Origin: Candidatus Heimdallarchaeota archaeon
Lineage (GTDB): Archaea > Asgardarchaeota > Heimdallarchaeia > Heimdallarchaeales > Heimdallarchaeaceae
Assembly (NCBI GenBank): GCA_030668875.1
Contig: DAOVER010000048.1
Span: 1 to 20,770 of the forward strand
Direction: 5' to 3'
DNA length: 20,770 bases
The position numbers and the translations under genes were made by a program. Position 1 is the first letter of the stretch, and each line of letters starts with the position of its first letter. Shown here piece after piece: positions 8,301 through 19,715 of this stretch. The notes under the pieces were generated by a model that saw only the letters and a list, made by a program, of their open reading frames with translations, ran no database searches and was not told the DNA's origin.

Positions 8301-9519
8301 AAATATTTTTCATTAAATCTCCTGCTTCTGATGCTGAAAGTGTACACGAATAAGGTTGTTCAGTTCCTATTTCAGGGAAGGAGGGTGTGCTGAAACTGGA
8401 AACAATTCCTATTCGATTTAAAATCACCCAAGCAGCATAAACAAGATCGTAATTACACATCACTAATCTTGCATTGTGGATATGTCTATTCAGATATAAA
8501 GTACTATCTCCTCTAAAACAACCTGTGACATAGCCTTCCTGTTTTTCTGGAGGTAAAGTGAGCATCCAAGTAGGTAGTTTTTTCTTATTAAATCCACGAC
8601 CAACAATATTATTGATAAATTCTGCAAATACCTTAGAGTGGAATCTTATATTGATCCAATGTCCATTAGAATTTTCCTCTATTCTTGATTCTAATCCAAA
8701 TAACTTCTTAGCTAAACAAAGTACATCTTCTGCATATCCAATTTCCTTATCAGAAAAAGTAAATCTAACCATATTCATGTCAGAATCCCCTTCACTAGCA
8801 TAATATCCAATAAATCGAAGAAAATCAGCTGAAATAGGGATAGTGTTCTTTATTTGTTTAACTTTATCATTTACACTACCATGTCTTAAATGAGAGTCAA
8901 TTGTAGCTTGTTTTATGAGATCATCCTCAACAAAATATCTATCATCTTTTAAGTAATCACAAATTTCAATAGTATCAATATCTTTGATCTCTTTGGGATA
9001 AGATACCGCTACTAAATCTTGTTCTTCTAAATCTTTAACCAAAACCCAATCCACATCACTATTTTTATAAGCTAAGATTGGGTGGTCTTCTGTTACTGAG
9101 AGCGTGCTAGTTGGAAGTTTCCAAATATCAATGATGTAATGCTTCTTGCTTCTTCTAACCATTGTGTTAGTAACTTTGCTGAAATTTCCATCAGCTGTGA
9201 GAACAAGCTCTCCGACTTCTATGTCTTTTATTCTCTTGAACCCATTAAACGTATTAATTTTCTGGTTTTCCGTAAAACACGCCGATAACATTCCTAGCTT
9301 TGTACCTGCATTCATTAATGTTGGAGAATTTGGAAGGAACTTTAGTGAGGCCATCAATTCAAAGAATTTCTCTTTTTCTTCTTCAGTTTCTCCTATGAAA
9401 TCCGCTACACGTTTAAACAATCCTTCTGGTGTTTCCAAAGGTTTCTTGTTTTCATCGCGTAACAGATAGCGTTTCTCTAGAACAGTTAGAGCATTCTTTG
9501 TTAATTCTATTGTAGTCAT
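2368..9519 (-). CDS. nrdJ: Class II adenosylcobalamin-dependent ribonucleotide reductase precursor with four inteins (spliced length about 721 aa; C-terminal TSCPD-like domain and Zn ribbon; no ATP cone)
   Basis: Joined exteins give FLPNSPTLMNAG..LSA|CFV, GGG|TGFSFS, QGG|RRRGANMG, NP|CGEQPL..ESCNLGSIN, RKIGLGIMG, TIAPTGTIS, SGIEP, AVSKTINF and KGITVYRDGSR (class II type, no class I Tyr pair). The C-terminus has GCGNLYVTVN..RCP..SCAD and CPDC..CYTCRQC. AAGGGGAT lies upstream of the ATG. Confidence 0.95.
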   Translation of the reverse strand: MTTIELTKNALTVLEKRYLLRDENKKPLETPEGLFKRVADFIGETEEEKEKFFELMASLKFLPNSPTLMNAGTKLGMLSACFTENQKINTFNGFKRIKDIEVGELVLTADGNFSKVTNTMVRRSKKHYIIDIWKLPTSTLSVTEDHPILAYKNSDVDWVLVKDLEEQDLVAVSYPKEIKDIDTIEICDYLKDDRYFVEDDLIKQATIDSHLRHGSVNDKVKQIKNTIPISADFLRFIGYYASEGDSDMNMVRFTFSDKEIGYAEDVLCLAKKLFGLESRIEENSNGHWINIRFHSKVFAEFINNIVGRGFNKKKLPTWMLTLPPEKQEGYVTGCFRGDSTLYLNRHIHNARLVMCNYDLVYAAWVILNRIGIVSSFSTPSFPEIGTEQPYSCTLSASEAGDLMKNIYSQKITGMTQASMQRLKYKIINDTLFLPIRKISIINEESEVYNFEVEEEHTYVANCVAVHNCFVLPVEDDMTSIFDGVKNAALIHQGGGGCCAAGTIIPTLEYGFVPIEEIPGFSQIPADEKGHSAKPFSVFSFDETTESFTRAKVSQLWKFQRNEYYRIEFGTEGFIEVTNWHPFYVYEPLPDGRSGGIYKTKRADEITETDWLVKPSFHDNIFLNEEPDFWWLYGFFLGDGSIDSTKNGVRIRFCSSEDRFLNRISEILERIADSSGSVYKDPRNNCKTLSIHSKYNLRDDNKYINLRMASLIKRFVKINGNEINRKQTPKSSFMCPNPKAFISGLIDSDGWIGKDKSGIATGSEELKDLIVRHLSLIGINCSVRYRKDERDRDIKGSWWSIEFRTGFTQQLLTKKTPRRTKLVSNRLIKINSINKFKEKKIFYDFTVPVYQNYLGGNTQFVTVHNTGFSFSKIRPKNDVVKTTGGVASGPISFMEVFNAATNTIKQGGCVATDSLIRTDTGSIPIGELLNCPPLSDNPTKSLVYDGEDFNHAYISMDNSIAEVIKITTDLGIEIKPTYNHLIASINEEGDFVWKEAENLKVGDWLVISLDGHCGSDVFLPSIKKQHHNANPIVIPEKMTPELGEILGLYMADGCISTQGRIVFSIDNKDPDLIQRIKDLMLKTFDLPVGMVDDKNTYSDLFFYSKDLCKYFEKMNWKKTSSADAFVPQIIFQSSISVAKSFIKGLFSGDGDVHTDGYPRYYSISETLVKKLQQLLLGLGVVSSISLNKNRLGSFGDKPIYCLSVIPERSLKIFKDEIGFAVSRKNNLLVERFPQKAFEYVDYIPNQGSKLRQQYNYVGAGTNKGRTKRGADRLFYRAIYHYISKSPSSYRGLTRKRLLQLFEKFPFLKEDTHFKEISNPRYYYSQVRSIEKEDSYTMDIEVSGSNKFVANGVLVHNRRRGANMGILRVDHPDILEFISCKEDQTKLTNFNISIAVTDVFMKAVDENSDYDLINPRNKQIVGKLNAKGVFDKIVEMAWKNGEPGMVFIDRINRDNPTPEVGEIESTNPCVTGDTLVYTADGRGSVPIQQLADEGKDVPVFTENTEGKITVRYMRNPRLTREKVDVYKILLDSGDEINATADHKFYLRDGSIRRTDQLKRDDSLHILTKRLSSQKGKFSKTEFNKYWRLYNKGRHEKNEHTHIASFYHNNSNSIPKDCVVHHRDFNSENNKPENLEIMGISEHNEYHSNRMKGEKNPLYKIKKDKKKWKEYQKKNPFYDVVGEKNPRFGVKLDDSTKRKIGQSIRNHHENNPELKQKLSKISKDLWKSKKYKKSAAKGFRNRAERKLEESRRKTDLECYLDGNLVKVKKICSNCGSSFNTSFSRREIGYCSKSCCMEAFNTDSTIRISRNEGINKTYQDRAQKNKELQIQKYKELKRQLERDPLKKEWENKCKDEEIHFRLGTKHGFSTYKELKEGSVMYNHKIVSVTYIGTNDVYNGTVDDYHTFFIGGFLSEDDTNKKVVYLKTRNCGEQPLLSYESCNLGSINLLKHVKDSDIDWSLLEESIRLAVRFLDNVIDRNQYVLPEIEQMTKANRKIGLGIMGFADVLVSLGISYNSKKALELANKIMSFLQEKSRDESSRLGKERGNFPNFDKSIFKDKYEYMRNATTTTIAPTGTISLIAGCSSGIEPFYAIAFTRNVLDGRKLFEANPLFEERLKAKDIYSEELLEKVASTNTIQELEEIPKKIRQLFVTTHDITPNDHIEMQAVFQNYVDNAVSKTINFTSTATKEDIAESYLLAYKKGCKGITVYRDGSRKYQVLSTKKDESKTKIDEQLRHIEKLEPRERPEVTVGQTHKIRSGCGNLYVTVNKDEKGVCEVFVQVGKSGGCIASQSEAVGRLISLSLRSGVKVESVVDHLAGIRCPSPNFYQGKTVLSCADGISQVLANYINSNHVVKHNGIIACPDCGGMLEFAEGCYTCRQCGFSKCD
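3745..5121 (-). mobile_element. Intein 4 in NrdJ (459 aa, HNH endonuclease type)
   Basis: Junctions STNP|CVTGDTLV ... VYNGTVDDYHTF...KTRN|CGEQP; block B TADHKF; HNH motif VVHHRDFNSENNKPENLEIMGISEHNEYH; two GEKNP motifs; CSNC..YCSKSC. Confidence 0.92.
5455..6798 (-). mobile_element. Intein 3 in NrdJ (448 aa, LAGLIDADG type) with non-canonical Arg at +1
   Basis: Junctions KQGG|CVATDSLI ... TMDIEVSGSNKFVANGVLVHN|RRRGANMG; block B TYNH; motifs LGLYMADG and IKGLFSGDG. The +1 codon is CGT at 5454-5452. Confidence 0.92.
6928..8031 (-). mobile_element. Intein 2 in NrdJ (368 aa, LAGLIDADG type)
   Basis: Junctions QGGGG|CCAAGTII ... FYDFTVPVYQNY..VTVHN|TGFSFS; block B TNWHP; motifs YGFFLGDG and ISGLIDSDG. 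Confidence 0.93.
8119..9279 (-). mobile_element. Intein 1 in NrdJ (387 aa, LAGLIDADG homing endonuclease type)
   Basis: Junctions LSA|CFTENQKI ... VYNFEVEEEHTYVANCVAVHN|CFVLP; block B TEDHP; endonuclease motifs IGYYASEGD and VTGCFRGDS. Confidence 0.93.
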
Positions 9520-9850: not shown

Positions 9851-10708
9851 ATGAAATTCATGAAGAATAAACGAGCAATCTCTCCTGTTGTTGCAATTAT
9901 GTTGATGTTTGTTCTAACAATGGCTGCAATAGGTATATCATTGGTTTATATGGTACCTAGTATCAATGGATTCAAAGATAAAACTTACAACAATAGCAAC
10001 AATTTGTATTTTGTATCTCTGGATGACACGATACAAGACCTCGTCAATAGCCCCCCACCAGGAGATAGACAGTTTTACTTCAATCAGGATATAGGAGAAC
10101 TGTTTTTCGATTCTAGCTGGTTAGTCCTATTTCTACTCAAAGATGTAACAGGTGCACAAAATGCACTCCTTTTTCAGGAAAATATAACCAGAATTGTGCA
10201 AAGAAGTACAGCTGTAACGGATTATGATATAGGAGAACATAGATACATTGTTGGTCCTCAAAGCCAAGATTATATGTTTTTAAACGGTTCTAGTACCCTT
10301 TACAATGAAATTGCTTTAATTAATGCTACAAGATCGGTGTACGATTCAAATTATTTAGATTTAGCACTTTACTACAGATATGTTTTATCAACACACTATA
10401 CAACAGAAGGGGTAACAGAAATCTATAATCTGGATATAATTAATCTTAAACTGTCTCTCAATGAATCTTCAAGAGATAGATCTAATGCTCAATTCATAAC
10501 AATGCAATTAAACTACTTAGGAACTGAAAAACAAGAGCTTGAGGAAGTAAGCTTCATGAATGATATTTATAGTGAGGTTCGTATATTGCATGGTGCTGGG
10601 TTCTTCCAATACGAATATCCGTTATACTATCCAGCTAACCCAGCTTTTATAAGTCATCTAATTAGGATAAATATAATAAACATGCTAGTATCTGTTACAT
10701 TAACATAG
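9851..10708 (+). CDS. Large archaeal type IV pilin-like protein (class III signal peptide)
   Basis: MKFMKNKRA|ISPVVAIMLMFVLTMAAIGISLVYMV: basic leader, [KR][GA] cleavage site, hydrophobic helix, then a polar domain with several N-x-S/T sequons. Confidence 0.8.
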   Translation: MKFMKNKRAISPVVAIMLMFVLTMAAIGISLVYMVPSINGFKDKTYNNSNNLYFVSLDDTIQDLVNSPPPGDRQFYFNQDIGELFFDSSWLVLFLLKDVTGAQNALLFQENITRIVQRSTAVTDYDIGEHRYIVGPQSQDYMFLNGSSTLYNEIALINATRSVYDSNYLDLALYYRYVLSTHYTTEGVTEIYNLDIINLKLSLNESSRDRSNAQFITMQLNYLGTEKQELEEVSFMNDIYSEVRILHGAGFFQYEYPLYYPANPAFISHLIRINIINMLVSVTLT

Positions 10709-10717
10709 GAGAGTAAA

Positions 10718-11182
10718 ATGCCAAGCGAATATATTATGTATCTATCAATACTTCTTGTGGGAACCCTCGCTATCGGAGGGATTTCTGTTACGATGATGTC
10801 GATAAATAGTGCTATGGAAGACAGATCTATAGAAACGGGCATGGAAAATATTCTCCAGAATATTTCCGAGACGATACATGAGCTCAAGGAAAGTGAGCTA
10901 AAGAAAATAGCTCAAGGGGCTACAGTTATTCATACGGAGCTAGTTCTGGATATTCCAAAACAGATACAAGAAGAAGAATATAAGATTGAAGTGATTTTCA
11001 ATAATCTAACTTACTCTCTAAAAGCAAGCTTGATCGACAATCCAGATGTTTCTGTAACAGTTTCATTACTTATATCTCCTGGAAGTATTTCAATTACAGG
11101 GATAATAGAGAGTACAGGACAGAACCCAAGAGTAACTTTCACTTACGATGGTGTAACCAGTAACATAATTCTAGAAGACTGA
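10718..11182 (+). CDS. Pilin-like or membrane-anchored accessory protein, single N-terminal TM helix
   Basis: Own SD (taGGAG) 9 nt after the upstream stop; hydrophobic N-terminal segment YIMYLSILLVGTLAIGGISVTMM followed by an amphipathic helix and a beta-rich C-terminus. Confidence 0.6.
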   Translation: MPSEYIMYLSILLVGTLAIGGISVTMMSINSAMEDRSIETGMENILQNISETIHELKESELKKIAQGATVIHTELVLDIPKQIQEEEYKIEVIFNNLTYSLKASLIDNPDVSVTVSLLISPGSISITGIIESTGQNPRVTFTYDGVTSNIILED

Positions 11183-11202
11183 CAAAACACCTCGTGCTTT
11201 TT
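11183..11202 (+). terminator. Possible terminator after the pilin pair
   Basis: Tiny CAC-CTC-GTG hairpin followed by a T tract directly after the TGA at 11182. Confidence 0.2.
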
Positions 11203-11264
11203 CTTGAATTATTGTTCCATTGCTTATAATTTTAATTAGATTTATAGCTAATATGAAAAATACA

Positions 11265-11272
11265 TTTAAAAA
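11265..11272 (+). promoter_or_regulatory. Candidate TATA box for the ATPase gene (probably near-leaderless mRNA)
   Basis: TTTAAAAA 23-30 nt upstream of ATG 11295, preceded by an A-rich tract; no SD before the ATG. Confidence 0.3.
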
Positions 11273-11294
11273 GAGTAAATCATAATAATATTTT

Positions 11295-12830
11295 ATGCAA
11301 GAAGATACAGGCGAAGCTTTTACTGATACAGCTGCTGTTCCGATTCTTGAAGAAACATACCCCGTCAGTCCTCCATTTTCCTATGTATTAATCCAAACTG
11401 ACCCAGTTTCTAAAAGAACACAATATATGGTTGTTGAGATTCCACTCGACAGCAAAGAACAAGCTATCTATAAGAAAATCATGGATATCATGATTGACGA
11501 ACTTGATGTTGATCTTTCCGTTCTAAAATCCACAGAAAAAGCTGAAGAGTTTCTTAAAAAGAAAATAGTTGACATTATCAAAAGATATCGAATTTCTCTA
11601 AATGAATCACAATTTGAGAAAATTATGTATTATCTAGCTCGCGATCTTATAGGTTATGGTAAAATCCAACCTTTTATGTTAGATCCAAATATAGAAGATA
11701 TTTCATGTGATGGTATAGGTATACCAATCTATGTATGGCATAGGAAGTACGAATCAATTTCAACCAATGTTTCTTTTGACAGCGCAACAGTTCTGGATAG
11801 TTTCATCATAAAATTGGCTCAAAGAGCAAACAGACATATTAGTATTGCTAATCCACTGTTGGATGCTTCTTTACCAGATGGTAGTAGAATCCAGCTAACT
11901 TATGGAAAAGAAGTAACTCAAAGAGGGTCTACATTCACAGCAAGAAAATTCAAAGCAGATCCATTTACAATTACAGATCTTATTTTATACAATACAATAG
12001 ATCTAGATATAGCTGCATATTATTGGTTCACAATGGAACATAATGTTAGTACTCTTATTGCAGGGGGTACTGCAGCAGGAAAAACCACTCTACTCAACAC
12101 TATATCTATGATGATTAAACCAGACTTGAAGGTTGTAACCATTGAAGATACTGCAGAATTGAATCTTGCACACGAGAACTGGATACCAAGTGTTGTTCGT
12201 TCAGGTTTTGGTGAAACAACTGAAACTGGGTACAGACGAGGTCAGATATCTATGTATGAGCTACTTCGTGCTGCAATGAGACAGAGGCCCGATTATATTA
12301 TTGTAGGAGAAATCCGTGGTGACGAAGCTTACGCAATGTTCCAAGCAATGAGTACAGGTCACAGAGGTTTAGGAACTATTCACGGTGACTCTGTTGAAGG
12401 TGTCATTCACAGGTTAGAAAGCAAACCAATGAACATTCCACGTTCAATGATGAAGTCTCTTGATTTAATCCATGTTATTCGTAAAGTCCGCTTACAATCT
12501 AAATTCGCTCGTAGAACCCAATCCGTAACAGAATTGATTGGCCTTGACCCTGTAACAGAAGAAATATTGACAAATAAATTATACCAATGGAATCCAAAAG
12601 ATGATACTTTCATCTACTTCGGGAGAAGTTATGTTCTTGAGAAAATAATGGAAAATACAGGATTGGAAGAACAAGAAATCTTCGACGAATTAGAAAGAAG
12701 AAAAACCATTCTCCGATGGATGGTTAAGAAACGTATAAGATACTTTGAGGATGTAGCATCTGTTATTCAAGAGTATAATTCTGATCCAGATAGAGCTTTG
12801 GAAAAAGCTCGAAAAGGACTAAAAGCTTAA
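11295..12830 (+). CDS. Type II/IV secretion / type IV pilus assembly ATPase (FlaI/ArlI-CpaF-VirB11 family)
   Basis: DPNIEDISCDG, LDASLPDGSRIQ, FTARKF, Walker A GGTAAGKTT, Asp box IEDTAEL, Walker B YIIVGEIRG, His box TIHG, and a C-terminal ELERRKTILRWM..Y..DP typical of archaeal members. Confidence 0.93.
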   Translation: MQEDTGEAFTDTAAVPILEETYPVSPPFSYVLIQTDPVSKRTQYMVVEIPLDSKEQAIYKKIMDIMIDELDVDLSVLKSTEKAEEFLKKKIVDIIKRYRISLNESQFEKIMYYLARDLIGYGKIQPFMLDPNIEDISCDGIGIPIYVWHRKYESISTNVSFDSATVLDSFIIKLAQRANRHISIANPLLDASLPDGSRIQLTYGKEVTQRGSTFTARKFKADPFTITDLILYNTIDLDIAAYYWFTMEHNVSTLIAGGTAAGKTTLLNTISMMIKPDLKVVTIEDTAELNLAHENWIPSVVRSGFGETTETGYRRGQISMYELLRAAMRQRPDYIIVGEIRGDEAYAMFQAMSTGHRGLGTIHGDSVEGVIHRLESKPMNIPRSMMKSLDLIHVIRKVRLQSKFARRTQSVTELIGLDPVTEEILTNKLYQWNPKDDTFIYFGRSYVLEKIMENTGLEEQEIFDELERRKTILRWMVKKRIRYFEDVASVIQEYNSDPDRALEKARKGLKA

Positions 12831-12870
12831 ACTCCTTTTTCTTCTTTTATATTTTATTTTTAATTTTGTA
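12831..12870 (+). terminator. T-rich archaeal-type terminator after the ATPase gene
   Basis: Several oligo-T runs (ctccttttt cttcttttat attttatttt taattttg) immediately after TAA. Confidence 0.4.
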
Positions 12871-12941
12871 TTTCATTCAAATAATTGGGTTTAAATATTT
12901 AGAAAACAAAGTTTCAATGTATAAAACATAGGTGCAATAAC

Positions 12942-13589
12942 TTGAATCCAGATGATGATAATAATAAAAAGAAAAAGAAAAAACCTGAAGATGATATAGA
13001 AGACGATTTCACATTTCCGTTTGATTTGTCTAACATAAGTGGAGATTTTAGTGATATCAATGAAATAATGGAAAAATTCCTACCATATTTCAAAGGATCA
13101 TCCTTTGGAAAAATCATGGATGAATTGATGAAAAATCTCATGAAAAATATAGAAGAAGGAATGGATTCAGGTAGTCTTGAAGATATGATGAATAATCCCT
13201 ATGTCTTTGGTTTCAACATTGGGGTTGGACCTGATGGAAAGCCTACCTTTGGTCAATTTGGCAATATCAAACCTAAAGCATATGGTGACATCGAAACTAC
13301 AGATGTTAGGGAACCGTTAATTGACGTCTTCAAAGAAGGAGATAAAGTAAGAGTGATTGCTGAAGTTCCAGGTATCAATAAAGGAGATATTAAGTTGAGT
13401 GGATCTGAAAGAGCTTTAACCATAAAAGCTCATTCTCAGTACCGTAAATACGAGAAATCTGTGAGTTTGCCTGTTGCTGTGAACATTGATACTGCTAAGG
13501 CTAAGTACAAAAACGGTGTTTTAGAAGTCATCATTGAAGTCAAAGAAGATGATGATAAGAAGAAAGATTATAGTATTGAGGTAGAGTGA
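12942..13589 (+). CDS. hsp20: Archaeal small heat shock protein (Hsp20/alpha-crystallin)
   Basis: TTG start with SD aGGTG; YVFGFNIGVGPDGKP motif; alpha-crystallin domain REPLIDVF..VRVIAEVPGINKGDI..YEKSVSLP..AKAKYKNGVLEV. Confidence 0.92.
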   Translation: MNPDDDNNKKKKKKPEDDIEDDFTFPFDLSNISGDFSDINEIMEKFLPYFKGSSFGKIMDELMKNLMKNIEEGMDSGSLEDMMNNPYVFGFNIGVGPDGKPTFGQFGNIKPKAYGDIETTDVREPLIDVFKEGDKVRVIAEVPGINKGDIKLSGSERALTIKAHSQYRKYEKSVSLPVAVNIDTAKAKYKNGVLEVIIEVKEDDDKKKDYSIEVE

Positions 13590-13591
13590 AT

Positions 13592-13604
13592 AGGATTAAA
13601 TCCT
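13592..13604. terminator. Short hairpin between convergent hsp20 and pilin-like gene
   Basis: AGGAT-TAA-ATCCT inverted repeat fills most of the 17-bp gap between the convergent stop codons. Confidence 0.25.
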
Positions 13605-13606
13605 CT

Positions 13607-14290
13607 TTACACTTCTAACCATAAAAGAATGTTATTTGATAATACAGCAGATAATACTTGCCCAACCTGTAGATCTGCTTCATATCTTCCATCTAAAAGG
13701 TTACTCACGGAAGTTGTAGGTTCTATAGTAATTGTTGCATCGTTGATAATGGTTCTATAACCATTGCTAAGCTTATAGATATAGATATAATTTTCAGTCC
13801 CTATTGTTTCTGATATTTCTAGATAATATGTTGCACCAAAAACGAATGTTGCATCAAAGTAATAATCTGGACTATCAATATGAATAGATATTTCCATAGA
13901 ACAAGTAATATAAGTTGGATTAGCAGATGTGCTGGAGTTTGATATACTAAATGTTGAGTTATCGAATGTTAACGTTGAGGGTAAATTGTGGCTATCTAGG
14001 AAAGATTCTACCACAGTAATTCCTTCAGTTATTAATACAATAATGCTATCTTTTGTATAACTTCTTGAATATTGAGAGATTGCAACATCAACAAGTTGTT
14101 CTAATGACGAAACAGAATTTTCTACGTAGAAATTAATTTGTCCTTGATTAGGTGTTGGATTGATATACGGACTTTGAGTAATTCGATATACTGTTGTTGA
14201 TAAGAGTACTAAATAAATTAAGATAACAATTGATAGGAGAAGAAAAACTTGTCCTTTTCTTTTTCTCACTTTGAATATATTATTACCCAT
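13607..14290 (-). CDS. Pilin-like protein with class III signal peptide (Gln +1)
   Basis: Likely start ATG 14290 (SD GGTG; the track starts at GTG 14299): MGNNIFKVRKRKG|QVFLLLSIVILIYLVLLS. Confidence 0.7.
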   Translation of the reverse strand: MGNNIFKVRKRKGQVFLLLSIVILIYLVLLSTTVYRITQSPYINPTPNQGQINFYVENSVSSLEQLVDVAISQYSRSYTKDSIIVLITEGITVVESFLDSHNLPSTLTFDNSTFSISNSSTSANPTYITCSMEISIHIDSPDYYFDATFVFGATYYLEISETIGTENYIYIYKLSNGYRTIINDATITIEPTTSVSNLLDGRYEADLQVGQVLSAVLSNNILLWLEV

Positions 14291-14291
14291 T

Positions 14292-14759
14292 TTAGACACC
14301 TATCAACCAATATTGAATATGAATTTGGTGAGGAGCATAATCACCATTTCTAGATAATAAAAGATAATCTATTCCCATAGTTTCCTCCGTATAGGTATAA
14401 CCTTTATTTATCCAACTACTTTCTATAACCTCCTCCGTTACAAGATTTTCACAATAAAGTGTGAATCTACCATTGTCAGGCAGAGTTACCAAAATAGCTT
14501 GTTCAATTATAGTTTTTATTGAAGCGATATCTTCAGCTGTTCCAGAATTAAGTGCTATCAAAAATTCATTCAATTGCCCATTAGTATCTAAAGTTGTCAT
14601 AGCTTCATACAACTCGACGTTGTAACTAGGAACAATTGGAGGTTGTGTCGCAATTCGCACTTCATACAAAGCAGTAACCATGATAATCATTACAGAAACT
14701 GCAATGAATGCTTCAATAATAAACAACTGACCTTTTTTGTTCATTATTTTTCTTCTCAT
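14292..14759 (-). CDS. Pilin-like protein with class III signal peptide (Gln +1, Glu +6)
   Basis: Likely start ATG 14759 (GGTGA 5 nt upstream; alternatives 14765 and 14744): MRRKIMNKKG|QLFIIEAFIAVSVMIIMVTAL. Confidence 0.72.
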   Translation of the reverse strand: MRRKIMNKKGQLFIIEAFIAVSVMIIMVTALYEVRIATQPPIVPSYNVELYEAMTTLDTNGQLNEFLIALNSGTAEDIASIKTIIEQAILVTLPDNGRFTLYCENLVTEEVIESSWINKGYTYTEETMGIDYLLLSRNGDYAPHQIHIQYWLIGV

Positions 14760-14764
14760 ATTCA

Positions 14765-15922
14765 TCACCAATACCAAACTCGACACTTAACTAGTAGACC
14801 TCGCATATTCATTGTATATGTTTCAGAGATGTAAGTCTGTTGATTGAGATCGGAATATGGTCCGTAAATTCCTCCATCAGACTGTCTTAAAAACATAGGA
14901 ACGCCAAGATATCCTGCCCTATATTCTATATTTTCTCGTTCATGTACAACAACTACTGACAAACCATTAGCAGGCATAGCTACTTGCTCACCAAAATAAA
15001 TTTCTCCTTCAACGCTACCAATTTGTTGAAGATCATGAATAAAGTAGGAAACACTAGGATCTTCAAATGGAAAAACAACTATAGCTTTGGCGACATCACT
15101 CAAAGGAGCTCTAGTAACACTTACATCAACTGCACTATAATCTACATCAGTATTCTCTCTTACAAAGGGAGTATAGTCCATCGTTATTTCCGAATACTCT
15201 AATCCTCCTCCTTTGTATAATCTCATAACAGTATAATCTTGATAAACTTCTCCAACCTCAGCAAAAACCACGATTGTATAATAGTCACTCATTGTTGTCG
15301 AAAATGAAGAGTGATAGCTGATGGAACCAGAGATATTTTGTGTTGTTGTAGAGTTTATTGCAACTGAACCATCGGCATCGATAACAAATGCCCAGATTTT
15401 TGCGTCGTCTATACTAGTCTGGAATTCCTTAACGGAGCCATAAAGATTTATGTTGCCTAAGGAAGCTGTATATGCATCAATTGATACACGAATTGGTGAG
15501 CTAATTTCAATGGCAAAATCGTTAAGTAGTCCATAGGACGTTTTAACATTAATATAATTTAAACTCCAATAGCTAGTTATGCCAGAAACTAATCTGTTGA
15601 CTTTTGTGAAATCAAGTGAATGTTGATTATTCATTAAGCCTAAGCGGAAATCAGTCATTGAGGCTGTTCCAATCTGACCCCAATTGGAGGGAGATCCCTC
15701 TGTAAGAAAGACATTGTGATATAACCTGCTCAAATCCTGTTCCTTTGAATAAGTTTCCATTTGAATAAGTGAAGGAATCAGTAGATTTGTTAGTACTAAT
15801 ACAACTTGACTAAATGCTATAATAAAAATTAGCATAGCTAAAGCAAAATCAACTCCTCTAACTTGAGCAAGTTTACTCTTTCTGATTCGCTTCAGACTAC
15901 GCTTCAGACTAGATTTTGTCAA
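14765..15922 (-). CDS. Large pilin-like/adhesin-like protein with class III-like signal peptide (Gln +1, Asp +6)
   Basis: TTG start with SD AGGAG; MTKSSLKRSLKRIRKSKLA|QVRGVDFALAMLIFIIAFSQVVLVL, followed by EGSPSNW..FRLGL and a beta-rich extracellular part. Confidence 0.68.
   Translation of the reverse strand: MTKSSLKRSLKRIRKSKLAQVRGVDFALAMLIFIIAFSQVVLVLTNLLIPSLIQMETYSKEQDLSRLYHNVFLTEGSPSNWGQIGTASMTDFRLGLMNNQHSLDFTKVNRLVSGITSYWSLNYINVKTSYGLLNDFAIEISSPIRVSIDAYTASLGNINLYGSVKEFQTSIDDAKIWAFVIDADGSVAINSTTTQNISGSISYHSSFSTTMSDYYTIVVFAEVGEVYQDYTVMRLYKGGGLEYSEITMDYTPFVRENTDVDYSAVDVSVTRAPLSDVAKAIVVFPFEDPSVSYFIHDLQQIGSVEGEIYFGEQVAMPANGLSVVVVHERENIEYRAGYLGVPMFLRQSDGGIYGPYSDLNQQTYISETYTMNMRGLLVKCRVWYW
15888..15911. 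repeat. Perfect 12-bp tandem duplication (CGCTTCAGACTA x2)
   Basis: Read directly; encodes SLKR-SLKR in the leader of the 385-aa pilin-like protein. Confidence 0.85.
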
Positions 15923-15925
15923 TTT

Positions 15926-16357
15926 TTATTCTCCTTTTTCTTCTGATTCATCACCCAATATACGTTCTTCTAGTAGTGATTTTATCTCGGCAAGAGTGGC
16001 TTCTAGTTCCACTAGTTCCATACCTTTTTCTAGAAGATTATTGGCTCTTTCTTGCATATTTTCAGCGTTTTTAATCTTTTCAGAAACAAGATTTTCAACT
16101 TGTTCCTTGAGACCCGCTAAATCTGTTTTTGTGCTCATCATTGATTCTATTCGCTCAATTTTGTCCTCCAAAGGACCCAGATCAACAGAAACTGAACCAA
16201 CAGATCCTTTAGAAGAAGTACCGTCAGAGCTTGGTCTACCAGTTTTATCTAGGGTACCCATCATTCTTACAATATTAAAACTGATTTGATTAACAACTCG
16301 TTTAACTTCCCCTATTTCATCTTTTAGAGATTTGACATCATCTTCTAATTTAGGCAT
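15926..16357 (-). CDS. Uncharacterised soluble coiled-coil protein
   Basis: SD GGTGA; heptad-like segments LEDDVKSLKDEIGEVKRVV and LKEQVENLV...LEATLAEIKSLLEE separated by a Ser/Gly linker; no TM segment. Confidence 0.8.
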   Translation of the reverse strand: MPKLEDDVKSLKDEIGEVKRVVNQISFNIVRMMGTLDKTGRPSSDGTSSKGSVGSVSVDLGPLEDKIERIESMMSTKTDLAGLKEQVENLVSEKIKNAENMQERANNLLEKGMELVELEATLAEIKSLLEERILGDESEEKGE

Positions 16358-16373
16358 ATGGTTTCACCTTTTA

Positions 16374-17303
16374 TTATACATTTATAGCGATTAACGGATT
16401 GTCTGGTTGAATAAGTATTTTAAAAGCAAACCAACCAATAAACATCATTACAACAGAGTGCATTAATCCGGCTTTTATGGACATTTTTGACATCTTTCCT
16501 GCTACGAGACCTGAGAAAAAGCCTTGGACAGCAAGCATGTGTAGAAATAATATCTCCAACGTGTCTAAATCTATCTCCATTAAAAACATACCAGCTGTTT
16601 GATCTGCTGAGATATTTGCTGAACCAAATGGAATAAAGAATGTTATGAACAAGATTACAACAACCATGATGAATATTACATAGGAAGCATAGACTATCCA
16701 AACATAAGGCTTCATTGCCCCCTCTCTTTCTTTCTTAAGATTAAGAAGGGTTTGAATATGATGCTCAGTTGCTTCAAAAATCTCTTCGAGATTTCCTCCT
16801 GACCTTTCCGCTTCAAGAATAAGTATAGTTGCCCTTTGAGCCAAAGGAGTATCAACTGCAGACTGAAAATCTTCCATTGCTTTGTTGAATGGTATTCCCC
16901 AAGTGATTTTACTTGACATTTTTCTTAGTTCAGGAGTTAATGGTCCATAATGCCTTTTAGCAGATTCTTGTATTGCTCTTGGTAAACTCATACCTGTTCG
17001 TTGTGCATTACTAATCTCTCGAAGGAGATAAGGTAAATTTTCATCTATTCTTGATTGTCTTCTTTCTTCTCTTAAAACTATTAGAAATGTGGGAATGCCT
17101 ATAACAACGATTATTGCCAGGATAACAAAATCATTGATATCTAGAATTGTTATGAAGTCTCCACCGCTACTTGTTGCAATAACATCTACCAATCCGAGAG
17201 TTACTAAAATTACTCCGGAAATGATAGCTATCGCCCAGTAAATCACATCTTGAGTAATTTGAAACTGTTTTGTTTCTACTTCTACTTCTTCGCCTACTGA
17301 CAT
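16374..17303 (-). CDS. Type II secretion system F family platform protein (TadB/TadC/FlaJ-like)
   Basis: Likely start ATG 17303 (SD GGTGA; the track starts at GTG 17312); IDENLPYLLREISNAQRTGMSLPRAI...YGPLTPELRK...ITWGIPF..AM...ERSGGNL; several TM helices. Confidence 0.88.
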   Translation of the reverse strand: MSVGEEVEVETKQFQITQDVIYWAIAIISGVILVTLGLVDVIATSSGGDFITILDINDFVILAIIVVIGIPTFLIVLREERRQSRIDENLPYLLREISNAQRTGMSLPRAIQESAKRHYGPLTPELRKMSSKITWGIPFNKAMEDFQSAVDTPLAQRATILILEAERSGGNLEEIFEATEHHIQTLLNLKKEREGAMKPYVWIVYASYVIFIMVVVILFITFFIPFGSANISADQTAGMFLMEIDLDTLEILFLHMLAVQGFFSGLVAGKMSKMSIKAGLMHSVVMMFIGWFAFKILIQPDNPLIAINV

Positions 17304-17312
17304 CTCATTCAC

Positions 17313-18179
17313 CTACATTTCTGGTTGTTGTGCGTCTATTAGCACAATAATTGCCAATTCTGAAATTGGAATAATTATATAAACTAAAACTGCCATCATT
17401 ATTGTGGAATTCTCAGCTCCAGCTCCTCCAAGCATTGACATCATAGCTAAAATAACTATAAAAAATATTGGAGACACTACACCTAGAACCATAAACAATT
17501 CAGCCATGATTCCTAGGGTTTCAATGAAATTCTTTTCTCTTTGGACTTTATCCTCCAATAGTGTTTCAGTGGATACTTCAAGAAATCTTTGAAGTTCTCC
17601 TCCTGAAGTAAAGGTTCCAATTATTCCTTCAAGAAAACTTGAATATTTGGGAGATGGAGATCTAAGAGAGGCTTGACTTAATGCAAGAACAATATCATAA
17701 CCAAAAACTTGAATATCTCTGGAAATTTTCTTTGCATCCTTAACAATAGCTTCGCCTATTTTTTCCTTCGTTAAAGAAAGAAAGATCCTATCTGGTGTAA
17801 CTCCAGCTGATGCCATTGCAGTCATATAACTTGATGCGGTTGGTAAGGCTGCTTCTAACTTGGTTTTTCTTACACCTACTAGATAACTAGGATAAACCCA
17901 ACTATACACAAACATACTCGTTAGAACTAAAATAGGTAATATTATTACTAGTATTATTGAGAAATTCTCAACTACGATATAAATAGCAATAAGAGATATC
18001 AATGATACAACAGCCAAAATTATTGCCCAAAAGATTCTTACGCTCAGGTACATTCTTACACTTTTATCTATCCCGGCTTTTCTTAAAGTCAGTTTGAGAC
18101 CTTCAAATTCAGCTAAATAAGGTTCAACTAATCTACCAATATACGAATAAGCAATTGATTCAATAATTCTTGAACTCAT
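17313..18179 (-). CDS. Type II secretion system F family platform protein (TadB/TadC/FlaJ-like)
   Basis: SD GGTGA; LRKAGI..LPTASSYMTAMASAGVTPDRIF...FGYDIVLAL...SPSPKYSSFLEGIIGTFTSGGEL..FL; TM helices at both ends. Confidence 0.88.
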   Translation of the reverse strand: MSSRIIESIAYSYIGRLVEPYLAEFEGLKLTLRKAGIDKSVRMYLSVRIFWAIILAVVSLISLIAIYIVVENFSIILVIILPILVLTSMFVYSWVYPSYLVGVRKTKLEAALPTASSYMTAMASAGVTPDRIFLSLTKEKIGEAIVKDAKKISRDIQVFGYDIVLALSQASLRSPSPKYSSFLEGIIGTFTSGGELQRFLEVSTETLLEDKVQREKNFIETLGIMAELFMVLGVVSPIFFIVILAMMSMLGGAGAENSTIMMAVLVYIIIPISELAIIVLIDAQQPEM

Positions 18180-18474: not shown

Positions 18475-19185
18475 ATGAGTCTTTATATTATACAATCCTC
18501 AGGAGAGTTAACTGAATGCTATAACAAGGAAGTAGCAATAAAATCCGAAAACGTTTTGTTAGTAATCTCTCACATGCAAAAGAAAATTTACACATGGATA
18601 GGGGGACAAGCATCACCACATTCAAAATTTGCTTGTGCAAGGGAAACTGCAAGAATTCGAATGGAACTTGGTTACAAAATTGTTAACTTAGAAGAATCAT
18701 ATACAACCGATGAATTTACTAAAGCAGTAGATGAGGCTTGCAACGTTAATTCTAAGGATATGCCTTCACCAAAACCAAAACCTTTGGCAGTCAAACCTCT
18801 AGAAATCAAAAAACCTGCCCCAAAACCAACATTGAAATCCGCAGCTAAACCAAAGCCAAAGCCAAAGCCAAAACAAAAAACTGGAACTAAAAAAGAAGTA
18901 ATCACTACAACTGAACGCAGATATAGCTCTACTATTGATACAAAAGTCATAGATGTAGAACATGTCATAAAGCAACTGAAAATACTTCCACCTATGAGTA
19001 ACAGCATAAGAGACTATATTATCATAGATGATTCTCTTTACATTGCTCCTGAAAATCTTGAGAAACCTGGAACTGAATCTAAAGTTTCATTACAAGATGG
19101 ATCATTTGTTGCAGATAATTATGTTCCAAGATTATTTTTAGAAAATGGTAAAATAATTGCAATTGAATTGTGGAGATCTGTTTAA
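18475..19185 (+). CDS. Asgard-type gelsolin-domain protein (single gelsolin domain + Pro/Lys linker + C-terminal X domain; 1DGelX-like)
   Basis: aa about 1-88: LYII..GEL....VLLVISHMQKKIYTWIGGQAS..KFACAR.....EESYTTDEF resembles a gelsolin repeat. aa 97-135 contain 12 Pro and 13 Lys. The C-terminal RDYIII...GSFVADNYVPRLFLENGKIIAIELW resembles the tail I recall from Asgard gelsolins. Confidence 0.75.
   Translation: MSLYIIQSSGELTECYNKEVAIKSENVLLVISHMQKKIYTWIGGQASPHSKFACARETARIRMELGYKIVNLEESYTTDEFTKAVDEACNVNSKDMPSPKPKPLAVKPLEIKKPAPKPTLKSAAKPKPKPKPKQKTGTKKEVITTTERRYSSTIDTKVIDVEHVIKQLKILPPMSNSIRDYIIIDDSLYIAPENLEKPGTESKVSLQDGSFVADNYVPRLFLENGKIIAIELWRSV
18850..18873 (+). repeat. Hexamer tandem repeat (CCAAAG)3 CCAAAA encoding PKPKPKPK
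   Basis: Read directly within the gelsolin linker. Confidence 0.85.
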
Positions 19186-19715
19186 TATCCCATCTTTTCC
19201 ATAACTTTTTTGGCAATGATAGTATAGATATCGTCAACTCCTTCGCCAAATTTGGCTGAAGATTCAAGAACCATGTAACCCTTTTCTTCCCATTTTTCAA
19301 TGGCTTCTTTAATCTCTACAGAACGTTCTTCTTCTAAATCAGTTTTGTTGCCAACAATAATAATGGGGATTTCCGGACATTTTTCTTCAACTTCATTAAT
19401 CCAGTTACTTATATGGTCAAATGATTCCTTTCTTGTTATATCATAAACGATAACAGCACCATGAGCACCTGTGTAATAACGTTTTCTTAAAGTGGCTAAT
19501 TTATCTTGACCAACTGTATCAAAAAGAACTATTCTAAGTATGGTATCCTCATCATATTGAATGTTCTTACTATAGAAATCAACTCCAAGCGTTGGAAGAT
19601 AAGATGAAGAGAAGCGGTTCTGGGTATAACGTACTGCTAAGCTAGTTTTCCCTACTGCATAATCCCCAGCATTAATGATTTTGATGATGTAAGTAACGTT
19701 AGGTGATAAGCTCAT
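19182..19715 (-). CDS. Rab-like small GTPase (Ras superfamily)
   Basis: G1 GDYAVGKT, G2 YLPTLGVDF, G3 DTVGQ, G4 NKTD, G5 SSAK; RabF-like LGVDF, YYTGA and IVYDIT; no C-terminal Cys. Confidence 0.92.
   Translation of the reverse strand: MSLSPNVTYIIKIINAGDYAVGKTSLAVRYTQNRFSSSYLPTLGVDFYSKNIQYDEDTILRIVLFDTVGQDKLATLRKRYYTGAHGAVIVYDITRKESFDHISNWINEVEEKCPEIPIIIVGNKTDLEEERSVEIKEAIEKWEEKGYMVLESSAKFGEGVDDIYTIIAKKVMEKMGY

Follow-up and report, generated by a model that had tools for sequence, protein, structure and literature searches.

Does a cluster of type IV filament genes in a Heimdall-group Asgard archaeon encode a swimming archaellum, a surface pilus, or some other apparatus, and what might it be used for? 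In the window that we analyzed (the whole stretch of 20,770 nucleotides), positions 9851 to 18179 hold ten open reading frames (ORFs), all of them intact (Table 1). The pilus parts are one PilB/FlaI-family ATPase, a platform split over two genes, four prepilins, a leaderless pilin-like protein, and a coiled-coil protein. Judged by their sequences, they form an intact gene set for a surface type IV pilus, not for a swimming archaellum, with a putative function. The best explanation for the locus as a whole, and one that we hold to be likely, is an archaeal type IV pilus (T4F) machine that does not rotate and is of the "clade 2/system 2" kind, with a proposed part in filament assembly and adhesion.

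Table 1. Genes of the pilus locus, with positions in the window
Feature	Position	Strand	Description
pil285, prepilin	9851..10708	+	class III motif KRA/ISPV; Pilin_N/DUF7289-type N terminus; beta-rich domain of ~250 aa
pil154, leaderless pilin-like membrane protein	10718..11182	+	hydrophobic N terminus MPSEY; DUF7266 family
PilB/FlaI-family secretion ATPase, assembly motor	11295..12830	+	511 aa; T2SSE 130 bits
hsp20	12942..13589	+	NCBIfam archaeal Hsp20 163 bits
pil230, prepilin, DUF7261-like	13607..14299	-	class III motif RKG/QVFLLL
pil164, small prepilin, DUF7288-like	14292..14786	-	class III motif KKG/QLFIIE; Gln and Glu invariant
pil385, large prepilin, DUF7287-like at N terminus	14765..15922	-	class III motif A/QVRG/VDF
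cc143, soluble coiled-coil protein	15926..16357	-	without TM segment or signal peptide
platform C-half, PilC/TadC-like	16374..17312	-	one T2SSF domain, 62 bits
platform N-half, PilC/TadC-like, first gene of minus-strand operon	17313..18179	-	one T2SSF domain, 42 bits

The choice between archaellum and pilus turns first on the ATPase. No Walker A, Asp box, Walker B, or His box residue of this protein varies among 12 orthologues, and we therefore call it catalytically intact. The top NCBIfam match is the model for the archaellum ATPase ArlI, but the score of 420 bits is under the cut-off of 550. Against PDB sequences, the window ATPase scores 443 bits with A. fulgidus GspE (afGspE; PDB 2OAP) and 290 bits with FlaI, whereas a true Asgard ArlI scores the opposite way (FlaI, 421; afGspE, 312). 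Phylogenetically, it falls inside an Asgard clade (support 97/100); the sister group is a Bathyarchaeia/Methanomethylicia/Nitrosopumilus clade (95/95), and Asgard ArlI lies far off on a separate long branch. The closest named relatives are Heimdallarchaeaceae/Heimdallarchaeota AB_125. The sub-cut-off score, the reciprocal PDB scores, and the tree rule out ArlI as the identity of this protein. Orthologues of the ATPase are often labelled "flagellar protein FlaI" in the source databases.

An archaellum, or a motility apparatus derived from one, whose archaellins have diverged strongly, could draw on that labelling, on the ArlI match, and on a weak FlaC_arch match of cc143 (E 0.005). It is at odds with the placement of the ATPase and with the genomes encoding a true ArlI, which hold a window-type paralogue as a separate copy. 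Moreover, domain and family model searches detect no archaellin, ArlH, ArlF/G, ArlCDE, ArlX, or prepilin peptidase in the window, and the 92%-complete genome contains no Arch_flagellin match and no archaellin. We give this explanation almost no credence; the lack of an archaellin, the separate paralogue, the tree, and the reciprocal scores refute it as far as our tools reach. The system does share with the archaellum the superfamily of its ATPase, a platform, subunits with class III signals, and a peptidase, but it differs in having no ArlI orthologue, archaellin, ArlH, or ArlF/G and in its split platform. An earlier, sequence-only reading of this DNA had likewise proposed a non-archaellum type IV pilus-like system with no archaellum-specific or peptidase gene in the window, and both points are borne out.

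Which kind of pilus machine the ATPase belongs to is suggested by its best solved full-length match, A. fulgidus GspE (AF0659; E 9e-132), which is the reference for clade 2/arCOG01817 (Makarova et al.). This protein also has 511 aa and no extra domains, a comparison that covers the ATPase alone. A 2026 survey suggested subclade 4A (Aap-like) for some Heimdallarchaea (PMC13705601); our preference for clade 2 follows from one solved reference and model scores, not from a full reference tree, and is to be read as provisional.

The two PilC/TadC-like proteins align to complementary halves of the ArlJ model (positions 10 to 249 for the N-half, 269 to 541 for the C-half), indicating that their genes make up one split platform. 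Both ORFs are in one reading frame with a single TAG between them. This TAG is a real gene boundary, because a GGTGA and an ATG come after it and relatives share the split with other junctions. The C-half likely starts at the ATG at 17303, 3' of that GGTGA; a GGTGA also sits 8 nt 5' of the N-half ATG. Nearly all complete loci of the same ATPase group have a split platform, in Asgard, Bathyarchaeia, Methanomethylicia, Nitrosopumilus, DPANN, and DHVE2 alike.

Five pilin-like genes had been proposed; all five are present, and four have a class III motif while pil154 is leaderless. In Pfam, the pil285 protein matches Pilin_N with E 0.012 and DUF7289 with E 0.18, its orthologues in loci L007 and L037 match DUF7289, and the motif [KR][KR][GA]/[VI]SP is kept across 11 orthologues. 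Its AlphaFold2 (AF2) model is poor (pLDDT 47), with an N-terminal helix followed by strands. From its sequence, pil285 could be a major or large structural pilin. In pil154, the N terminus reads MP[SH]E[YW] with an invariant Glu4. The protein matches DUF7266 over nearly its full length (E 2e-5), and a profile built from 11 Asgard orthologues retrieves bona fide DUF7266 proteins (E 2e-6 to 2e-4) among 1.8 billion representatives searched. It is probably a base or anchor subunit independent of the peptidase.

The three remaining pilins are linked to DUF families via orthologues and gene order; direct searches of the same genome for DUF7287 and DUF7288 gave no matches. The class III motif of pil230, a putative minor pilin, is kept in orthologues with a complete N terminus; the orthologue in L008 matches DUF7261 (E 0.0026), and the gene occupies the position of DUF7261 in the Haloferax mediterranei locus. 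For pil164, the true start is likely the ATG at 14765. Precomputed PF23959 matches are found on its Loki orthologue and on several database relatives; a pil164 profile compared with one DUF7288 protein was not significant. Among the best 120 of its 184 relatives, the names shown are Asgard lineages, "subsurface metagenome," or "hypothetical protein." The pil385 protein aligns with the H. mediterranei DUF7287 protein in hhalign (probability 82%, E 1e-5). Its AF2 model (pLDDT 80, pTM 0.76) combines an N-terminal helix of 70 aa with Ig/FnIII-like beta-sandwich domains in tandem. In the PDB, only generic Ig/MG/FnIII tandems resemble it; in the ESM Atlas, it matches archaeal hypothetical clusters over its full length (TM 0.74 to 0.84). 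The model suggests a tip or adhesin-type minor pilin. Within the genus, identity is 97% for the ATPase, 79 to 83% for the platform halves, 73% for cc143, and only 50 to 55% for all five pilins, and we count the low pilin values as consistent with surface exposure.

Beside the pilins lies cc143, previously regarded as an orphan. It is in fact kept between the platform and pilin genes, with orthologues at the same position in 10 Asgard loci; apart from the FlaC_arch lead, its database matches are generic coiled coils only. Neither the Bathyarchaeia loci examined nor the H. mediterranei locus has it. We regard it as a putative cytoplasmic scaffold or motor regulator. The hsp20 gene between the two halves of the locus, correctly recognized in the sequence-only reading, occurs at the equivalent position only in the genus relatives (L034 to L036). 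An A/T-rich region of its own lies upstream, its TTG start is preceded by a GGTG, and a T-rich stretch lies between the ATPase stop codon and hsp20. It is unrelated to the pilus system, a separate gene lodged at an inversion junction.

The convergent arrangement of the two halves, once thought to be how the system is built, is likewise no design feature. The layout with hsp20 is confined to this genus (the window and L034 to L036), whereas all nine pilus genes run in a single direction in L037 and in the Hodarchaeales loci L045 and L046. Locus L008 is another variant of the nine-gene operon, and the Loki/Borr loci L007 and L043 are co-directional variants with the pil285 and pil154 genes downstream, in which jackhmmer did not call pil230. 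The convergent layout is therefore derived, a recent genus-level inversion with hsp20 insertion, and has no functional meaning. Among the Heimdallarchaeia genomes sampled, 73 of 76 have the ATPase and 72 of 76 have pil385. Across genomes, pil385 accompanies the ATPase in 76 of the 83 that are ATPase positive, and in about 50, by a hand comparison of two match tables, both lie on one contig no more than 8 kb apart. The gene set is thus inherited together across Asgard lineages, and its two halves do co-occur. With this co-occurrence, an ATPase that does not group with ArlI, and a genome in which no archaellin is detected, both tests that the sequence-only reading set for refuting its proposal leave that proposal standing. 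This retention, in ~72 of 76 sampled Heimdallarchaeia, also bears on whether the locus is a remnant in decay, unable to build any structure. The operon is broken by the inversion, the peptidase is unlinked, and some scattered Asgard T4F genes have been seen as remnants (PMC13705601). Yet all ten ORFs are intact, the catalytic residues are invariant, the genes are tightly packed, and an RBS-like GGTGA precedes both platform-half genes, making decay extremely unlikely.

The missing peptidase is found elsewhere, so that the system proves complete at the level of the genome though not, as had been claimed, within the window. Contig C54 carries the single PibD/FlaK-type peptidase gene (Peptidase_A24 plus Arc_PepC_II); the protein keeps both Asp motifs and shares 29% identity (E 8e-18) with a peptidase whose gene immediately precedes the ATPase gene in a Loki-type locus. 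Contig C74 has a separate gene for a 142-aa PilA-like pilin, a candidate filament-body pilin as an alternative to pil285, and large proteins with Pilin_N-type N termini are encoded on C82 (920 aa) and C71 (605 aa). Proteins with class III signals, these large ones among them, could be displayed or exported by a short pseudopilus or bindosome-like platform in place of a long adhesive pilus, and T4F machines have been proposed to be widely functionalized by class III-signal binding proteins (PMC13705601). Five pilin-like proteins with no obvious small, abundant major pilin in cis would also fit a minor-pilin-only structure. We nevertheless consider this unlikely: scores fall far short of the model cut-offs for BasE (229 against 1000) and BasF (31 against 1300), no substrate-binding protein genes lie within or beside the Asgard loci examined, and the C74 protein is a classic small PilA-like pilin.

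Another proposal was a DNA-uptake filament, which would also fit the intein load next door. In bacteria and in Sulfolobales, cells take up or exchange DNA by means of type IV filaments, and a ribonucleotide reductase (RNR) gene that carries three or four inteins does lie 330 bp upstream. A competence-, Ups-, or Ced-like pilus is, however, very unlikely here. The window and the orthologous loci contain no DNA-binding or DNA-translocation gene, and the UpsF model reaches 40 to 44 bits against a cut-off of 400. The RNR adjacency is specific to the genus, other lineages having unrelated neighbors, and the RNR ORFs of the genus relatives (720, 720, and 1088 aa) hold, judged by their length, no intein or about one. 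The intein load therefore varies independently of the conserved pilus genes and lends the proposal no support.

How new, then, is the predicted pilus? The sequence-only reading overstated its case in calling the filament uncharacterized, since the pilin set is homologous to one associated with PilB/PilC in haloarchaea. In H. mediterranei (pHME505, 318 to 328 kb), genes of the DUF7287-DUF7288-DUF7261-DUF7266-DUF7289 set come after the platform gene. They correspond to the five pilin-like families of the Asgard locus in nearly identical order and have matching N-terminal signatures (RGQ..[VI]DF, [KR][GA]Q.F..E, and [KR][GA]Q..L). Sequence comparison identifies the five Asgard families as remote homologues of this set. 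The ATPase cores are 43% identical over 402 aa, but the haloarchaeal protein is extended at both termini to 931 aa, compared with 511 aa, and the platform is one fused 674-aa gene instead of two half genes. Haloferax also has a KaiC-like DUF7125 gene upstream, which the Asgard locus lacks, and no coiled-coil gene. Unlike pil154, the DUF7266 protein of the haloarchaeal locus carries a short leader (MTDRA), and pil385 has gained ~200 aa of Ig-like domains relative to its counterpart. In a quick tree, the two ATPases are not sisters; haloarchaeal PilB falls outside the Asgard/Bathyarchaeia-group clade, suggesting that the pilin set may differ in history from the module of ATPase and platform. In the scheme of Makarova et al. 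2016, the H. mediterranei-type locus probably corresponds to the "PilB4/HVO_1160-like" type (clade 2). We conclude from these likenesses that the Asgard system is a variant form of a pilus already known from haloarchaea, itself functionally uncharacterized: neither system has a demonstrated function, and H. volcanii PilB4/C4 is expressed with a product that is not known (PMC4371748, PMC12542753).

For the Asgard pilus, we propose that the peptidase would cut the short basic leaders off the prepilins and that the hexameric ATPase would drive the FN/FC platform to lift pilins from the membrane into a helical filament. An initiation or tip complex of minor pilins might consist of pil385, pil164, and pil230, in which pil385 would offer its Ig-like domains as the adhesive end. 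Either pil285 or the small PilA-like pilin in trans could make up the filament body; pil154 would remain membrane bound as a base subunit, and cc143 would act on the cytoplasmic side as motor scaffold or regulator. Adhesion to surfaces or partner cells appears the most likely use, and contact with partners is plausible, a suggestion taken solely from the literature.

Similar machinery is seen in two further settings. The suggested similarity to Bathyarchaeia loci holds for the ATPase and the split platform but not for the adjoining pilin set: Bathyarchaeia, Methanomethylicia, and Nitrosopumilus loci share a sister ATPase (49 to 56% identity) and the order ATPase-FN-FC, but after the platform come no more than one or two small pilins of the Pilin_N type, with no cc143 and no pil385, pil164, pil230, or pil154 in cis. 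The CdiP system of Cuniculiplasma divulgatum has a split platform and makes real adhesive pili (PMC12448462). In both this and the Asgard system, N-half and C-half platform genes adjoin the ATPase gene, but in CdiP two ATPases flank the platform and the pilins lie ~500 kb away. A CdiP-like layout is also found in the DHVE2 locus L113, whose ATPases fall outside the Asgard plus Bathyarchaeia-group clade.

The contig that carries the locus (C79, 20.8 kb in its entirety) comes from a MAG of 3.2 Mb in 99 contigs that is 92% complete and whose nearest named relatives are Heimdallarchaeaceae, Heimdallarchaeota AB_125, and YT1_029. Ten ORFs, all of them intact, lie within positions 9851 to 18179, and three independent MAGs confirm their arrangement. 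The locus is real and intact, a variant of an already known kind; judged from its genes, it is an archaeal type IV filament (T4P/T4F) assembly gene set. The minus-strand genes are packed tightly, and a T-rich stretch separates the ATPase gene from hsp20, whose presence at the locus is genus specific and which we dismissed as a part of the pilus system. A search of sequencing runs for the locus returned marine-sediment DNA metagenomes, of which two may be its origin, with no RNA run among the matches listed.

Features of the pilus locus, its neighbors, and related genes elsewhere
Feature	Location	Strand	Description
RNR ORF	window 2368-9519	-	Ribonucleotide reductase, 2383 aa, three or four inteins
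pil285		+	Prepilin, N terminus of Pilin_N/DUF7289 type (KRA/ISPV)
pil154		+	Hydrophobic N terminus without leader; DUF7266 member, E 2e-5
ATPase		+	511 aa, T2SSE
hsp20		+	Own A/T-rich upstream region; GGTG ahead of TTG start
FN		-	Platform N-half; one T2SSF domain, ArlJ model positions 10-249
FC		-	Platform C-half; one T2SSF domain, ArlJ model positions 269-541
cc143		-	Soluble coiled-coil protein
pil385		-	Prepilin
pil164		-	Prepilin
pil230		-	Prepilin
Gelsolin-like gene	window 18475-19185	+	236 aa; weak Gelsolin-repeat match, E 0.023; Pro/Lys-rich linker
Small GTPase gene	window 19182-19715	-	Rab/Ras-like, Ras 164 bits
C54 peptidase	C54:5102-5923		PibD/FlaK-family class III signal peptidase; Peptidase_A24 and Arc_PepC_II, both Asp motifs
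C74 prepilin	C74 (L114:1477-1905)	+	Stand-alone classic PilA-like prepilin, 142 aa, KKRG/VSPVIATVLL...
C82 ORF	C82:13784		Open frame of ~920 aa, Pilin_N-type N terminus
C71 ORF	C71:4568		Open frame of ~605 aa, Pilin_N-type N terminus
C9 ATPase	C9:27524-30326 (L002)	-	Additional, highly divergent T2SSE ATPase of 458 aa; T2SSE 69 bits, window ATPase 100 bits
G086 ATPase	G086:C17:41037-44042		Orthologous ATPase in stop-free frame of ~1070 aa; match in two parts (model 34-311, 307-519)
G058 ATPase	G058:C66:6462-9518		Orthologous ATPase in stop-free frame of ~1070 aa; match in two parts (model 34-311, 307-519)

The assembly machinery appears intact at the level of its motifs. The ATPase matches T2SSE with 130 bits, and its Walker A, Asp box, Walker B, and His box (G257-T264, E284-E288, D333-G342, and T354-H363) do not vary among 12 orthologues. 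The two T2SSF domains required of a platform are supplied by two adjacent genes, FN and FC, which align with the N and C halves, respectively, of ArlJ, and relatives keep this split. The two ORFs share a reading frame with a single TAG between them, followed by GGTGA and an ATG; because of these signals after the stop, and because relatives are split at other junctions, the junction is a real gene boundary. Read-through of the TAG, pyrrolysine, and a pseudogene were all excluded, as the layout is unchanged in the genus relative L034, and in L036 the stop is a TAA and the following gene lies in a different frame. The apparent fusion of the platform in L036 (608 aa) is spurious and stems from masked N bases.

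Four of the five pilin-like proteins carry a class III signal motif (basic leader, glycine or alanine at -1, hydrophobic helix) that is conserved in their orthologues, and cleavage is predicted. The sequence-only reading saw no prepilin peptidase in the window and proposed a search for one elsewhere in the genome; a PibD-type peptidase is encoded by a single gene on contig C54. A Loki-type locus encodes a homologue of this peptidase immediately before its ATPase gene. The coiled-coil protein cc143 resembles only generic coiled coils in the PDB and the ESM Atlas and has a weak FlaC_arch match (E 0.005). The predicted complex of cc143 with the ATPase scores 0.02, which is evidence neither for nor against binding.

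The locus is not an archaellum, as judged from several comparisons of its sequence. The ATPase reaches 420 bits against the NCBIfam model for the archaellum ATPase ArlI, below the cut-off of 550, and among solved structures its best match is Archaeoglobus fulgidus GspE (443 bits), with Sulfolobus acidocaldarius FlaI at 290. A control Asgard ATPase that exceeds the ArlI cut-off reverses this order (FlaI 421, GspE 312). In an IQ-TREE phylogeny of 53 ATPases, the window protein falls within an Asgard clade (support 97/100) whose sister is a clade of Bathyarchaeia, Methanomethylicia, and Nitrosopumilus (95/95), and the ArlI pair sits on a long branch of its own. Model searches found no ArlH, ArlF/G, ArlCDE, or ArlX within the window, and archaellin (Arch_flagellin, PF01917) has no match in the 92% complete genome, although four archaeal control genomes do match. 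The ArlI cut-off is reached by a single genome in the phylum sample of 300; this genome and a second just below the cut-off both also encode the paralogue studied here. The view that this is a non-archaellum system, with ArlH, ArlF/G, and archaellin absent from the window, is thus borne out.

To place the locus among its relatives, we called ORFs in 85 related loci and classed them by jackhmmer from the window's proteins. The ATPase-FN-FC core is present in nearly all complete loci, across Asgard archaea, Bathyarchaeia, Methanomethylicia, Nitrosopumilus, DPANN, and DHVE2. Among the 85 loci, only those of Asgard archaea (Heimdall, Hodarchaeales, Loki/Promethearchaeota, and Borrarchaeum) have cc143-pil385-pil164-pil230 following FC along with pil285 and pil154. 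All nine genes are co-directional in L037, L045, and L046, whereas in the window and its genus relatives L034 to L036, the block from FN to pil230 is inverted, with hsp20 at the junction. Therefore, the "two convergent operons" originally described are a recent, genus-level rearrangement of one ancestral operon.

The two halves of the locus also co-occur across genomes. The pil385 profile matches 78 of the 300 genomes of the phylum sample, including 76 of the 83 that are ATPase positive, and a hand comparison of the two match tables places the two genes within 8 kb on one contig in roughly 50 genomes. Within the class Heimdallarchaeia, the ATPase is found in 73 of 76 genomes and pil385 in 72 of 76. 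The operon is present in 20 of the 21 genomes sampled from the family in which the ATPases are identical or near-identical to ones from named Hodarchaeota/Heimdallarchaeota MAGs. The locus is truly split in one Heimdallarchaeia family (L039, L041, and L100, and f6 of the phylum sample): pil154-ATPase-FN stand alone, and pil385 is on another contig in 10/10 genomes where both could be located (in G267, the two are present as fragments only). Although recorded as Bathyarchaeia, L041 has an ATPase that nests inside this Asgard group, suggesting a mislabelled or misbinned record. L113, from a DHVE2 group archaeon, has a split platform between two ATPases, both outside the clade of Asgard and Bathyarchaeia-group sequences; this layout is that published for Aciduliprofundum and the Cuniculiplasma CdiP.

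Conservation falls steeply from the ATPase to the pilins. The within-genus comparison gives 97% identity for the ATPase, 79 to 83% for the platform halves, 73% for cc143, and only 50 to 55% for all five pilin-like proteins; set against L034 to L036, the ranges are 92 to 97% for the ATPase, 79 to 83% for the platform, 66 to 73% for cc143, and 43 to 56% for all five pilin-like proteins. Such a gradient is the pattern expected for surface-exposed subunits and suggests diversifying selection or cassette exchange of surface parts. A Foldseek search of the PDB with pil385 returned generic Ig/FnIII/MG tandem domains only and no solved pilin; the AF2 model of pil285 (pLDDT 47) was left out of the fold search. 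The major pilin may be pil285 or the PilA-like prepilin on contig C74 acting in trans, both being candidates. The C74 prepilin resembles the lone pilin encoded after the platform genes in Bathyarchaeia.

The Asgard pilins appear to have counterparts in haloarchaea. Weak Pfam matches pair the five families with the haloarchaeal DUF7287, DUF7288, DUF7261, DUF7266, and DUF7289. Searched against 1.8 billion representatives, the Asgard pil154 profile recovered bona fide DUF7266 proteins (E 2e-6 to 2e-4), on contigs reading T2SSF-DUF7287-DUF7288-...-DUF7266-DUF7289. The annotated Haloferax mediterranei plasmid pHME505 encodes DUF7125 (KaiC-like), a 931-aa PilB-like ATPase, and a fused 674-aa platform, followed by DUF7287, DUF7288, DUF7261, DUF7266, DUF7289, and a Pilin_N pilin. 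Gene order after the platform agrees between the Asgard and haloarchaeal sets, as do the N-terminal signatures, family by family, and the ATPase cores of the window and H. mediterranei are 43% identical. The pil385 profile matches a DUF7287 protein at E 1e-5 (hhalign), pil164-DUF7288 and pil285-DUF7289 pair via orthologues, and the pil230-DUF7261 pairing is weak (E 0.0026). Against one haloarchaeal DUF7288 protein, the pil164 profile stayed below significance, and direct searches of the MAG with DUF7287, DUF7288, and DUF7125 gave nothing significant.

Compared with the haloarchaeal set, the Asgard version has a minimal ATPase, a platform split as in the experimentally shown CdiP pilus (PMC12448462), an added coiled-coil gene, a DUF7266 homologue without a leader, and a pil385 that is larger by what are modelled as tandem Ig-like domains (AF2 pLDDT 80). 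A haloarchaeal PilB was not recovered as sister of the Asgard ATPase; in a quick FastTree with one haloarchaeal sequence, it fell on a long branch outside the clade of Asgard and Bathyarchaeia-group ATPases, in agreement with the remark of Makarova that ATPase/TadC modules and pilin sets evolve independently. Set against afGspE (443 bits), FlaI (290), and the BasE model (229) alone, the window ATPase is nearer to afGspE, the clade 2/arCOG01817 reference (Makarova et al. 2016). With its haloarchaeal-type pilin set, the locus would fit what Makarova et al. named "PilB4/HVO_1160-like", within clade 2; the Aap-like subclade 4A may be an alternative placement. Its two-gene platform is unlike the single-gene platform stated for system 2 (Sivabalasarma and Albers 2026); many clade 2 loci have two tadC-like genes (Makarova 2016). 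In a 2026 survey, "simpler Aap-like systems" are attributed to some Heimdallarchaea (PMC13705601). In Haloferax volcanii, pilB4/C4 are expressed (PMC4371748, PMC12542753).

Among known archaea, Heimdallarchaeia stand closest to eukaryotes, and the way they contact surfaces and partners in syntrophy is directly relevant to models of how eukaryotes arose. The literature already notes T4F components in Asgard archaea (PMC13705601; PMC13700489), and a 2026 census found ordered type IV filament loci to be rare among them (PMC13705601). Our sample points the opposite way, with nearly every Heimdallarchaeia genome in it keeping a single compact set of pilus genes; existing models probably miss the Asgard pilins because of their very fast divergence. 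The window locus is otherwise an ordinary member of this Heimdallarchaeia pilus family. The tie to haloarchaeal PilB4-type loci links the Asgard set to hosts that are genetically tractable.

For pili of this kind, we would infer by default a role in adhesion or partner contact. The cultured Hodarchaeales "Ca. Margulisarchaeum peptidophila" HC1 and "Ca. Flexarchaeum multiprotrusionis" SC1 are reported to bear unexplained surface filaments on their protrusions, helical, 15 to 25 nm thick, with a tip knob, and concentrated where partner methanogens meet (bioRxiv 10.1101/2025.02.26.640444). If these were the product of orthologues of the locus, the unusually large pilins pil285 and pil385 could account for the filament thickness and a complex of minor pilins and Ig domains for the tip knob. 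That the orthologues do build these filaments, making the system a Heimdallarchaeia-wide organelle of syntrophic partner contact, seems to us improbable, though compatible with the operon's presence in 20 of 21 genomes of the Hodarchaeota/Heimdallarchaeota-like family and with the rarity of true ArlI in the phylum sample. Because the preprint reports knob-tipped filaments at partner interfaces, the locus is a testable candidate and nothing more, and it provides a concrete list of candidate genes for the surface filaments of cultured Hodarchaeales.

DNA uptake, the other function raised by the sequence-only reading, finds no support. Neither the window nor the orthologous loci contain DNA-handling genes, and the Ups and Com models fall far under their cut-offs (UpsF, 40 to 44 bits against 400; ComGA, 65 against 300). 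The intein load of the neighboring ribonucleotide reductase (RNR), which had been taken to fit DNA uptake, does not carry over to relatives: the gene adjoins the locus within the genus only. The window ORF has Intein_splicing matches in four stretches, LAGLIDADG in three, and HNH in one, whereas L034 and L035 have orthologous ORFs of 720 aa, a length that implies no intein, and that of L036, at 1088 aa, implies about one. Close strains thus differ strongly in their intein load. The two-part ATPase matches in G086 and G058 suggest an intein within the pilus ATPase of some relatives.

Further genes of the same genome were noted. The C9 ATPase is followed by two small genes (269 and 207 aa) that match no Pfam family, and is possibly a remnant or else an unrelated secretion-ATPase module. 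The large C82 and C71 proteins are possible class III-signal surface proteins able to use the same peptidase or machine. On the far side of the locus, the gelsolin-like and small GTPase genes are convergent with a 4-nt overlap, and the same pair adjoins the pilus genes in L034 (64% and 79% identity).
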